Of a DNA stretch of 64,000 bases, positions 12,101 through 15,100 are shown piece by piece. The stretch's first letter is position 1; the number at the start of each line of letters is the position of its first letter. Position numbers: made by a program. The DNA is from Escherichia coli (GTDB lineage Bacteria; Pseudomonadota; Gammaproteobacteria; Enterobacterales; Enterobacteriaceae), in NCBI RefSeq assembly GCF_003019035.1, contig NZ_CP027448.1, one strand, 5' to 3'.

Positions 12101-15100
12101 CAGGGGCGAAAGTTTAGTTCTGAAGGGAAAGGGTGATAAGAGATAAAATATCTGGCCTGCGGTAGCAGACCAGACTTATTAGTTTGAGCGAGAGTCATTA
12201 CTCTACACAGTAATCAATTCTGCAATTTTTGTTGCGACAACTTCCAGCGTGTCTTCTCCCGTGTCCAGACCGCTTCGGGATGCGAGCAAGGGACTAACAT
12301 TGCGGAGAGCTTCATACGTTGTGTTATGAACGATCGGTACGAGTTGGTTACCGGCCAGTAAAGCTGAGAGCTCTTTATCAGCAACGCCTTCTTTGGGCAG
12401 TCGGTTTAACAGCGCTGGAGTCACTAATACCAAACCGATTCGAGAATTTGCTAATCCTTTATCGATGGCACGCATCATGGGAACGCCAAGAGCAAGATCC
12501 TTTTCGCTAAACCATACTTTGACGCCTGCAGCCTCGAGCAAATCGTGTAGCTCTTTGGCTACACCTTGTCGATCATCCCAAGCGTGACAAAGGAATACAT
12601 CACGCAAATCCGGCTTCTCTGCTACAAGCTTCTCCACCGTTTGGCGAATCGGTGTGAGGGATTGTACCTGGGCGGTTGTGTAGGAAACGGAAGACCCCGA
12701 TTTTGACCAGCGGGGCTTTGTGCCGCTGCTGGATCCTCCGCCACTGCTTCCACGACTTCCGCCAGCGCTGCCTGACGAGGAGTAGGACGGATAACTATCA
12801 TAACTGTAGCTGCTGCGGCGATAACCACTGCGATTGCGACAGGCTGGACAGGCAGCCGCAGCTGCTGCTGAGCTATGTCCACGTACAGGAGCCGTACATC
12901 TGGGCATGTTCTCATTTCCCCTTAGTATTCTGGAATAAATCCGCTGTGATAGTAAAACCAGATAAGTAATGGGGATTATTGATTGCAAACTCAATGTCCA
13001 TATTTTCAAAAGCTTGCACTTCATCACACTGTCACAGCTGAACTATCCAATAAAACCAAAAGAGCAGGGGGCTAGCGTTTCCGACTGGGGCTGAATTCAT
13101 CCGGATTTATCAGAACCGGATTAATCATCCTGAGTTGTTCCTGAACTCTGGCCTGGGCCCGTCGTTTGGGCATCTTTTTGCTCCGGTCACGCTTGCCATC
13201 GCGTTCAAGTTCATCCATTTTGCTTTGAGCCAGTTTTAAAACAGCCCCAAGACGTTTGTTATCAACGATTTGCCCCAGATCAACGCATTCCAGTTTGTCG
13301 AACACCTGATATTTGAGTGAACGGTAACCGTATTTGAATGCCAGTGTACCGTCAGGATAGTCGTAGACTGTTATTTTCTCGCCAGCGATACGAGCATTTT
13401 CTTCTGTTGGGTCAACGAGATATATCATTTTGACATATCGGAATGTCAGTGTTTTCGATAGCTTGCGCGATTCCTGCCATGCAAATATATCATCCAGCTC
13501 TTCGCCACTTTCTGCCACCGGGCGATGCAAATCTTTGGGATACTTTGCGGGCCTGGCGAAACGACGATTGAAGTCAGCTATGAAAGTAGCCAGCCAGGCG
13601 TTCGCTGCTTCAATGCTGCTAATTCCTTTAAGACGCATTTCCTTGATAAGTCGGTCCTGAAGTGTCTGATTTGCTCGCTCCACACGGCCTTTAGCCTGCG
13701 GACTGTTGGCACAAATCAACTCGATCCCCAGTTCAGAAAGTACACGGCCAAACTGTGTGATGCCGGTTGTGGTTGAACCACCATTATTGACCCTGAAAAT
13801 GCCGTGCTTGTCGCTGTAGAATGCAAGTGGCTTGCCGTGTTGTTCGAGATACTCGCGGGTGGCCATCATGTAATCAAAGGCTGATTCAGTCTCACCAAAG
13901 CGGAGGTGCATCAGGCGGCCAGTCGCGTCATCAATAAAGACGCGCAGGCAGCATTTCGGTGCCCGGCCTTCAAACCAGTCATGTGGAGAACCATCAATCT
14001 GAACAAGTTCTCCCAAGCAGTCACGCCGATATCTGGGCTGATGAACACGGGGCCTGCGACGTGAGTAAGGAACCAGAGTCCATCAGCCGTCATCCATTGT
14101 CTGAGCGTTTCAACAGATACTGTGATGTTGTGCCGTTCGCGTAATTTTTCTGCGGCCAGTGTTGGTCCAAAGTCGCTGTAATGGTCGTGAAGTAACGAAA
14201 GAACACGCAGCTTCAGTGACTCAGGAAGCCTGTGATTACCGGGGCGTCCACGCCGAAGGTTTGCCAGTCCTGCTGCGCCAGATTCGTGAAAGCGGTTCAT
14301 CAGACGCTGTGTCTGACGTTCGGTCAGAGCAAACAGCTGAGCTGCATCACGACGGCGCATGCGCTTTTCAACAACTGACTGAATGACATTGATCCGACTG
14401 AGTTCTTTATCTGACATGGTCACAAGCATCCTGATGTCTCCGTGGCCTGAGGATTGGATCCTTTATGCCAGAAAAAGTGACATTACTAAATGGGTTAAAA
14501 GTGACATCAGAATATTGGAGTTACAACCATAGAGCGCATAATCTATCTTATGTTAAATTTTCATCTGTATCATGTCCGATGTTCTTTCCTTTCTTTATAT
14601 TTTACATCTGTTCACTTAATGTTCAACTATATAGTGATTAGACATTTTAATATCGTGTTAAGATACAGAGAGTTAGTGAAAAACGACAACTCTTATTAAG
14701 TATTTGTTTTTTAATTATTAAGTGATAGATAGAATATACCTATAGGAATAATCACAAATACAAACACTTGTAAAATTCATATTTTTCAATTAGTTAATAA
14801 ACAACATTAACAATAAGTGCTTTATTTATTCTATTGCGCTTTATTTAAGAATTTTTACGTTTAAAATAAAAAAAATAATCAACTAGGAGACTGTAATATT
14901 AACATAATAACCAAAATTGATTCATCCATCCTTTTATTTTGAATTGACATAGGAGGATTGATTTTATTTACAAAAATAACCATTTAATTATTAAATGGAA
15001 AGATAATAGCTATTCCATACATAATAATTATTATTCCTACTAATTGGGTTTGTTTATAATATAATAAACGCTTAGATTGTGACTACCATCTAAAAGATGG

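Follow-up and report, generated by a model that had tools for sequence, protein, structure and literature searches.

The closest described relative of the protein treated here is TcpYI, a Toll/interleukin-1 receptor (TIR) virulence protein encoded in a tRNA-Phe genomic island (Norenberg et al. 2013, cited in PMC4810146) and reported, in the account given there, to help the bacteria survive in macrophages and the mouse spleen. SpbK, the product of a gene of the mobile element ICEBs1, is a protein of 267 aa in which a linker joins an N-terminal sensor (residues 1-94) to a TIR domain; its NAD-cleaving (NADase) activity, with E192 as the catalytic residue, is activated by a phage portal protein (PMC11984713). 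AbTir and BtTir are established NADases as well (description of PDB 8G83; PMC11374754), and the glutamate of a WxxxE motif is needed for this activity both in AbTir (E208) and in TcpC (E244) (PMC11374754). As for the mobile element concerned, ISKpn63 is a transporter insertion sequence (IS) of the IS1202 family, ISAba32 subgroup; the passenger genes of this family are labelled "hypothetical protein" or, in three cases that were examined and did not include ISKpn63, have no function assigned by Pfam, and those of its other members are mutually unrelated (PMC10132070; bioRxiv 10.1101/2022.12.17.520857). We analyzed a stretch of 64,000 nucleotides of Escherichia coli DNA (contig NZ_CP027448.1 of assembly GCF_003019035.1; hereafter the window), in which a TIR gene on the minus strand (12203-12907) is the passenger of a structurally complete, ISKpn63-like transporter IS of the IS1202 family, inserted beside a dif-like Xer site.

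Existing annotation already covers the gene as a matter of routine; the family goes by the name TcpYI and is represented by a PADLOC profile, and the IS, too, has been catalogued. In the literature we found no report that the hitherto "hypothetical" passenger of ISKpn63 is a TIR gene, as it is; that the TcpYI family is a solitary gene which crosses phyla on integrons, IS, prophages and islands; or that the family is extremely conserved, down to a Tyr-rich disordered stretch and a CHCC motif at the N-terminus. The passenger of ISKpn63 is hereby linked to TcpYI, which until now has been considered solely as a virulence factor of Yersinia.

The TIR gene as passenger of an ISKpn63-like element

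The IS spans positions 12035-14525 (minus strand, 2491 bp; annotated as ISNCY) and is arranged in the order left terminal inverted repeat (IRL, 14501-14525), transposase gene, TIR passenger gene and right terminal inverted repeat (IRR, 12035-12059). On the minus strand the outer end of IRL is TGT and that of IRR is ACA, so that the element has the form TGT...ACA; the two repeats match at 17 of 25 positions, and comparison with the ends of ISKpn63, as published in the supplement of bioRxiv 10.1101/2022.12.17.520857, showed identity at 46 of 50 positions for the left end and 49 of 50 for the right one. Both sides carry the 5-bp target-site duplication ACCAT (plus strand), the left copy at 12030-12034 and the right one at 14526-14530, where it fills the 5 bp between IRL and the XerC arm of the dif-like site. 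The preliminary description of the window, made by reading the sequence alone, had the gene boxed in by IS remnants, between one of IS66 and an rve transposase. Fragments of IS66 do lie nearby (10951-11738), but the rve transposase is not a separate neighbor, as it belongs to the same IS as the TIR gene, and this IS is no remnant, having both of its ends and both target duplications.

The limits of the element were also examined by alignment with an IS of the Klebsiella plasmid CP029101, which is 85% identical and devoid of the TIR gene. This relative matches the window down to position 12944 and again from 12094 to 12035, the latter stretch finishing with GCAATAACA, followed by ATGGT. As both ends are common to the element with and without the TIR gene, the boundaries are set at 12035 and 14525. 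An IS end at about 13003, which corresponded to a megablast boundary and would have left the TIR gene outside of the IS, was refuted by this more sensitive alignment and by the published ends of ISKpn63. The IS of CP029101 has 260 bp in place of the approximately 850 bp that carry the TIR gene, and the slot between the transposase gene and IRR thus seems to exchange cargo. In CP029101 (locus L012, about 2620-2880) that slot is occupied by a different 260-bp segment, the end of which is overlapped by an open reading frame (ORF) annotated in RefSeq as a 43-aa hypothetical protein.

The transposase gene, of the IS1202-family DDE (rve) type, extends from 13072 to 14417 on the minus strand and is a pseudogene in the window, where a 1-bp deletion near 14075 splits it into two ORFs (13072-14016 and 13911-14429); the deletion appears as a single-base gap against the intact gene of plasmid CP055749, which encodes 448 aa and is annotated as "ISNCY family transposase". 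The TIR gene lies between the stop codon of the transposase gene and IRR, and is intact despite this frameshift. The same unit of transposase and TIR genes was found in at least 136 plasmids, mostly from Klebsiella at about 93% identity, and in about 11 of 5426 complete E. coli genomes, with four of those copies located in the chromosome. In one divergent copy (locus L013) the transposase gene is 84.5% and the TIR gene 82.6% identical to those of the window, so the two genes have diverged together and their linkage is old. With ISKpn63 the element shares the same kind of ends, the 5-bp duplication, the insertion 5 bp from the XerC arm and the presence of one passenger downstream of the transposase gene; it differs in being an E. 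coli isoform, about 92-93% identical to the Klebsiella copies, and in its frameshifted transposase gene.

The joint divergence and the linkage of both genes in so many plasmids, together with a TIR gene kept intact where the transposase is frameshifted, would be expected if the passenger served the IS itself, be it in transposition, in the targeting of Xer sites or in post-segregational addiction. Such a role is nonetheless extremely improbable: the TIR-less relatives, with their 260 bp instead, occupy the same kind of dif-like site, the passengers of other IS1202-family elements have nothing in common with one another, no antitoxin-like partner is present, and in most other species the TIR gene has no IS1202 element nearby.

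The dif-like site (14531-14558, plus strand) consists of AGAGCGCATAA (XerC arm), the spacer TCTATC and TTATGTTAAAT (XerD arm). Read on the minus strand, the order is ATTTAACATAA (XerD arm), spacer GATAGA, TTATGCGCTCT (XerC arm), the duplication ATGGT and TGTAACTCCAATATTCTGATGTCAC, with which IRL begins at its outer end (14525). The left end of the element is therefore proximal to the XerC arm, 5 bp away from it, and this layout fits the targeting geometry described for the IS1202 family and its ISAba32 subgroup (PMC10132070; bioRxiv 10.1101/2022.12.17.520857). The same arrangement was found at chromosomal dif: the copy of E. coli GN25, the one examined of the four chromosomal ones, is 5 bp away from canonical dif (GGTGCGCATAA-TGTATA-TTATGTTAAAT) and beside hipB. 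In this GN25 copy the transposase gene is also frameshifted, and the outer 37 bp of IRR have been lost. A "dif module", meaning a gene enclosed between two Xer sites, was ruled out because the site at 14531-14558 is the only dif-like site in the 64 kb of the window. This site is a landing pad for IS1202-family elements and may be the multimer-resolution site of the plasmid. In plasmid pRHB07-C12_2 (CP055749; locus L001, 10533-12087), 99% identical to the window, a second IS1202-family IS of about 1.56 kb, with a transposase gene of 1398 bp, separates the dif-like site from the TIR-bearing IS; its insertion point corresponds to positions 14522-14530 of the window, which lacks it, and the same Xer site has therefore been targeted twice.

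Gene limits and domain organization of the TIR protein

An ORF scan of the window detects a minus-strand ORF at 12203-13027, with a GTG start and 274 codons, which the preliminary description took for the gene. The ORF is there, but the gene proper is 12203-12907, with an ATG start at 12907, 234 codons and a TAG stop codon (12203-12205), and the 40 N-terminal residues of the longer ORF are not part of it. This start was chosen because it agrees with the annotation of relatives, with the PADLOC alignment and with the beginning common to the family. Plasmids 99% identical to the window have a 705-bp gene annotated as "toll/interleukin-1 receptor domain-containing protein", both in RefSeq and in GenBank; the PADLOC ThsB model PDLC00424 aligns residues 41-273 of the 274-aa ORF with its positions 1-233 of 234 (E-value 6.6e-128); and the motif MxRCTAP is the start of all homologs, from 79 species. 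The extra 40 residues fall in the spacer between the TIR and transposase genes, and the IS ends at 12035. Both the start of the gene and its place inside the IS are hereby corrected. The gene is intact, and the protein is not a fragment of a larger one.

The GC content of the gene is 0.526 and that of the whole IS is 0.491. The contrast with AT-rich flanks to which the preliminary description had drawn attention is real, with 0.27-0.30 in the flanks, but it belongs to the whole mobile block from about 10.8 to 14.56 kb (0.50) and not to the gene in particular. Downstream, 27 nt past the stop codon, a terminator-like hairpin (12150-12175, minus strand) has an 11-bp stem and a 4-nt loop followed by ATTTTATCTC, with a folding energy of -19.2 kcal/mol (z = -4.1).

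The TIR domain is encoded by codons 101-234 (12206-12607, minus strand). In agreement with the TIR signatures first read from the C-terminal sequence, Pfam TIR_2 matches residues 144-237 of the 274-aa ORF at 5.8e-15 (Pfam TIR, 0.003), and sequence matches to the PDB at about 1e-14 (4e-16 to 9e-14) were best for Brucella TcpB/BtpA, Paracoccus PdTIR, Acinetobacter AbTir and BtTir. An AlphaFold model built from an alignment of 28 sequences (mean predicted local distance difference test score, pLDDT, 73.5) has five strands alternating with helices between residues 102 and 232 (pLDDT about 75-92), which is the flavodoxin-like TIR fold, with low confidence for residues 1-60. A Foldseek search with this model recovered TcpB/BtpA, PdTIR, BtTir and AbTir at probability 1.00, with target template modeling (TM) scores of 0.74-0.84 and 27-31% identity over the structural alignments. 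Both the profile search and the structure prediction thus returned a TIR domain. As a whole, the anatomy described, that is, the limits of the gene, the TIR fold and the place of the gene as passenger inside an ISKpn63-like element next to a dif-like site, is in our judgment nearly certain.

The protein had been said to lack an obvious catalytic glutamate, a claim that did not hold when the family was aligned. In one alignment of 79 sequences from 79 species, E179 (GAG, 12371-12373), located within GVADKELSALL, is kept in all 79, and hhalign places it on the glutamate of the WxxxE motif of TcpB (WPARE), past a 4-residue insertion. The position of the tryptophan of that motif (175) is V or I in the family of the window protein, and more distant members read G-W-A-D-K-E-L. 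E179 is, from these alignments, a candidate for the catalytic glutamate of WxxxE type. A previous pairwise HMMER comparison with TcpB had put Val instead of Glu at the catalytic position, a register error due to the 4-residue insertion that was corrected by the family alignment and by hhalign. In addition to E179, invariant or nearly so are A176 (78 of 79), L180 (79 of 79), D112, R113 and the F105-L-C107-H108 motif.

TcpB (BtpA), AbTir, BtTir and PdTIR are the closest solved folds and share with the window protein the WxxxE-type glutamate in helix C; they differ in their N-termini, which are coiled-coil or otherwise helical. The family also differs from AbTir in the 4-residue insertion before the motif and at three positions whose mutation lowers the NADase activity of AbTir: S140, D167 and W204 correspond to C107, S134 (with E135 adjacent) and V/I175, each conserved within the family although unlike AbTir. 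Given these three differences, NADase activity is plausible but not guaranteed. The same substitutions would suit a catalytically inactive TIR scaffold or decoy that blocks other TIR proteins and serves mobile elements as an anti-defence factor; the extreme conservation of the family, as expected of binding to a conserved partner, and the carriage of the gene by plasmids, prophages and integrons, vehicles that also carry anti-defence genes, point in that direction too. We regard this as very improbable, since the near-invariance of A176, E179, L180, D112, R113 and the F105-L-C107-H108 motif is the pattern typical of an active site, and to our knowledge no TIR decoy of such a kind exists.

The region ahead of the TIR domain had been described as a segment of about 100 aa, rich in Ser, Gly, Tyr and Arg and disordered or of low complexity. 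Such a stretch exists, but it is shorter, comprising codons 24-65 (12713-12838, minus strand), with 38% S, 21% G, 12% Y and 12% R; it is predicted to be disordered, with a pLDDT below 50 at residues 29-59. Among the 79 sequences its length is 33-49 aa and its mean composition 36% S, 22% G, 13% Y and 11% R, with 0.8% acidic residues. It is preceded by the MPRCTAPVRGHSSAAAAAACPAC motif (codons 1-23; 12839-12907, minus strand), in which C4 is conserved in 76 species, H11 in 77, and C20 and C23 in all 79, the fourth ligand being His in more distant members. The pattern of Cys4, His11, Cys20 and Cys23 suggests a small zinc-binding knuckle. After the disordered stretch, codons 66-100 (12608-12712, minus strand) contain an RWS...VSYT segment, in which W67 and Y76 are invariant (79 of 79), and a linker helix at residues 78-97 (pLDDT about 85-89). 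The N-terminus holds more structure than the label "low complexity" conveys. One Yersinia homolog is annotated as a lipoprotein, which was judged unlikely by eye, as its N-terminus has no hydrophobic h-region.

One could imagine that the putative zinc knuckle and the FUS-like S/G/Y/R stretch form a built-in switch for condensation and assembly, in which a very general signal that the cell is invaded or stressed, for example some nucleic acid species or a change in metals or redox state, would make the N-termini cluster, and the clustering would join the TIR domains and so turn on NAD+ cleavage. This is a speculative proposal that we consider unlikely; if true, it would be a bacterial counterpart of the condensate-driven activation of plant TIR proteins and SARM1, and would explain how such a small stand-alone gene has stayed nearly unchanged across phyla and vehicles.

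In the overall layout the N-terminal region is variable, a helical linker follows and the TIR domain stands at the C-terminus; this is the layout of the Tcp proteins (TcpB, AbTir) and of SpbK, and the protein does therefore fit a described architecture, contrary to the preliminary description. Like SpbK, it is encoded by a single gene on a mobile element and begins with about 95 non-TIR residues, joined by a linker to the C-terminal TIR domain and its catalytic Glu (here a candidate); unlike SpbK, its N-terminus consists of the zinc-knuckle-like motif and the disordered S/G/Y-rich stretch, so that the two are likened by architecture.

The end-to-end match to PDLC00424, with weaker matches to other ThsB models of PADLOC, raises the question of Thoeris. 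The protein could be an orphan ThsB-type synthase producing a cyclic ADP-ribose (ADPR) or His-ADPR messenger for an effector encoded in trans, or topping up a resident Thoeris system, and the conserved candidate glutamate and the NADases AbTir and BtTir as closest structural relatives would fit such an enzyme. AbTir and BtTir also produce cyclic ADPR isomers. Yet the ThsA effector is not linked to the gene: the annotation of a 99%-identical plasmid, over its first 100 kb, which include the whole counterpart of the window, lists no gene of ThsA type (SIR2-SLOG or Macro-TM), and four neighboring genes tested singly gave no ThsA match. STING, CBASS or CapRel partners were not found near the TIR gene either. 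The absence of all four kinds of partner, noted at first sight, was thus confirmed in the window, in the annotation of the 99%-identical plasmid and in 80 species-level loci, in which no neighbor family is common to more than four. The only NCBIfam matches, to retron-TIR and Thoeris type III models, are below threshold, those for Thoeris far under the cut-offs, and a messenger without a receptor would not be selected consistently across phyla. We therefore find a role as orphan synthase unlikely.

Distribution, genetic contexts and selection of the TcpYI family

A protein from Y. pseudotuberculosis (P0045, 233 aa) shares 82-84% identity with the window protein along its entire length, and the composition of its residues 1-92 equals that published for N-TcpYI in all 20 amino acids (PMC7646307; TcpYI is UniProt A0A0U1QVR5). 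P0045 is thus most probably TcpYI, and the family is one already named and studied in one species; the gene of the window, which had been regarded as an orphan, belongs to it. Both proteins have the CHCC N-terminal motif, the S/G/Y-rich stretch, the linker and the TIR domain, and they differ in location, TcpYI being encoded in a tRNA-Phe genomic island and the window copy by an IS passenger on an IncF plasmid.

Protein searches returned at least 8000 scored candidates, all significant, the best 120 of which were aligned over 73-100% of the length at 76-98% identity. With one genome per species, at least 518 relatives of full length and 62-94% identity were found in Proteobacteria, Bacteroidota, Firmicutes, Actinobacteria, Verrucomicrobia, Myxococcota, Desulfobacterota and Bdellovibrionota, including environmental bacteria and non-pathogens such as Nitrosospira, Methylomonas, Ca. 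Nitrotoga, Gallionellales, Chitinophaga, Paenibacillus and Geomonas. The family appears to be among the most widely spread of stand-alone TIR genes.

For the analysis of flanks, all ORFs around the 80 species-level loci (L025-L104) were clustered, and once the gene itself and the frames that overlap within it are set aside, no family recurred in more than four of them. The TIR gene is strictly solitary, and it rides at least four kinds of mobile vehicle: integron cassettes, IS, prophages and islands. In Yersinia it lies in a CP4-57-like island, past a cbeA/cbtA pair and before a gene matching the PADLOC candidate PDC-S31; in Pectobacterium in an island with toxin-antitoxin and AAA ATPase genes; in Pseudomonas in the moron slot of a lambdoid prophage, between antiterminator Q and holin; and in Gallionellales in a region resembling a plasmid or an integrative and conjugative element. 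In the Y. enterocolitica islands (L003, 6985-7614; also L004-L006) the gene that follows it encodes 208-209 aa and matches PDC-S31 at 3.4e-17, which indicates a neighborhood of defence type. In a lineage from soil metagenomes (P0122, 68% identity) the TIR gene lies 13 bp downstream of a conserved 344-aa ORF (L017, 506-1540; L018, 3425-4459; L019, 732-1766) that has no Pfam or PADLOC match, and the pair may be a two-gene variant. In 71 of the 80 loci the strand opposite the 3' half of the TIR gene is also open over about 126 aa; this antisense ORF probably just reflects the codon composition of a strongly constrained gene.

Among 75 species-level loci, the gene is a single-gene integron cassette with complementary boundaries in about 12 to 16. 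In these loci GTTAGAGCGCATC precedes the ATG by approximately 62 bp, and just past the stop codon comes the complementary GATGCGCTCTAAC; exact complementarity of the boundaries was found in 8 loci, against 0.56 expected from a shuffled control, and a relaxed match in 20, against 6.3 expected. The strict attC regular expression RYYYAAC...GTTRRRY had no match at the loci, and the real cassette boundaries, GTTAGAGC and GCTCTAAC, break the last consensus position of this pattern. An integron integrase IntI (TIGR02249, 465 bits, cut-off 265) is encoded less than 8 kb from the gene in four loci, and in Arsukibacterium and Ca. Nitrotoga the TIR gene is the first cassette after IntI.

The passenger segment of the window (about 12095-12943) has the proportions of a cassette, with 36 bp upstream of the gene, the gene and 108 bp that include the hairpin 12150-12175, which by position and size occupies the place of attC in the integron-borne relatives. 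The window copy has no IntI and no recognizable attC core sites, only the hairpin, and as such core sites were not found at 12095-12943 a cassette origin of this segment is put forward as a suggestion. Integron cassettes that encode phage defence have been described (Kieffer 2025, Darracq 2025 and Getz 2025, as cited in bioRxiv 10.64898/2026.03.17.712381); the relatives of the TIR gene share with them the format of a single-gene cassette, from which the window copy differs in lacking IntI and attC core. The literature, searched for orphan ThsB and for TIR integron cassettes, yielded no paper on the TcpYI family in these connections and none that presents the TIR gene as a cassette.

To quantify selection, dN/dS was calculated for the window gene against 14 relatives, dS being saturated in most comparisons between genera. 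For residues 66-234 (linker and TIR domain) the values were 0.02-0.05; for residues 1-65 they were 0.06-0.17 and reached 0.33 in one pair. Such low ratios with saturated dS imply that the similarity among relatives is due to strong constraint and not to recent transfer alone. Purifying selection on the family is unusually strong, the disordered part included.

These data bear on the role for which TcpYI was named. As a host-directed virulence factor, the protein would reach animal cells and disturb signaling through Toll-like receptors and MyD88, or the NAD+ of the host, and this fits its 82-84% identity to P0045, with the composition of N-TcpYI, the survival effect reported for TcpYI in macrophages and mouse spleen (as related in PMC4810146), the closeness of TcpB/BtpA among solved structures, and a host plasmid of virulence-type IncF with autotransporter genes and a gene for a KatP-like catalase-peroxidase. 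On the other side stand the near-identical full-length proteins of non-pathogens and environmental bacteria, found in integron cassettes and prophages, and a dN/dS of about 0.03 throughout, from which the selected function is not specific to animal hosts. No signal peptide was seen, secretion signals not having been formally searched for, and no conserved secretion neighbors accompany the gene. A virulence role thus strikes us as improbable. Against the published reading of TcpYI as a virulence factor, the distribution of the family speaks for a role within the bacterial cell, and the virulence interpretation of TcpYI-type proteins calls for re-examination.

Proposed function and other features of the window

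The function that we favor, although with no more than moderate confidence, is that of a self-contained NAD-cleaving enzyme for the defence of mobile elements. The protein would be a stand-alone TIR NAD+ glycohydrolase, inactive as a monomer, whose N-terminal region would drive assembly on a trigger, most plausibly a component of a phage or of another invading element. The assembled TIR domains would cleave NAD+ through Glu179, resulting in its depletion or in a product of cyclic ADPR type, and the infected cell would be arrested, with protection of the mobile element and of the host population, as in the case of SpbK of ICEBs1. The gene could so constitute a single-gene device of abortive infection, or against invaders, at the service of the element that carries it.

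Several observations weigh against such a role. Defence genes usually evolve fast, and the TcpYI-family gene is unusually conserved. No sigma-70-like promoter was detected directly upstream of the TIR gene, where one was looked for. A search of deposited phage genomes gave no close relatives, only distant TIR proteins of about 32% identity. To these are added the three positions at which the family departs from AbTir, no enzymatic or phage assay having been found in the literature for the window protein or for the TcpYI family, and a sole published phenotype, according to PMC4810146, namely that TcpYI influences virulence in mice and in macrophages (Norenberg 2013).

If a defence enzyme it is, a dif-homing IS with a gene of NADase type bears on how plasmids gain defence cargo. 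A family so solitary, mobile and constrained is in any case a cheap experimental target on which to learn how a lone TIR domain senses and acts.

As for the rest of the window, the IS66-family transposase fragments on the minus strand include a segment (11700-11787) that matches ISEc23-like IS66 elements in many plasmids. Further to the left, positions 7867-10515 contain the gene of the KatP-like catalase-peroxidase (737 aa, with a signal-like N-terminal sequence), followed by a cytochrome b562-family gene, both of which are typical cargo of large virulence plasmids of E. coli. On the other side of the IS, a very AT-rich block (14600-18700; GC content 0.22-0.30) contrasts sharply with the adjacent IS block and encodes small unknown proteins. 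At 16331-16909 a bactofilin-like "polymer-forming cytoskeletal protein" is encoded, and at 17570-18637 an EAL-domain protein with an N-terminal region resembling a helix-turn-helix.

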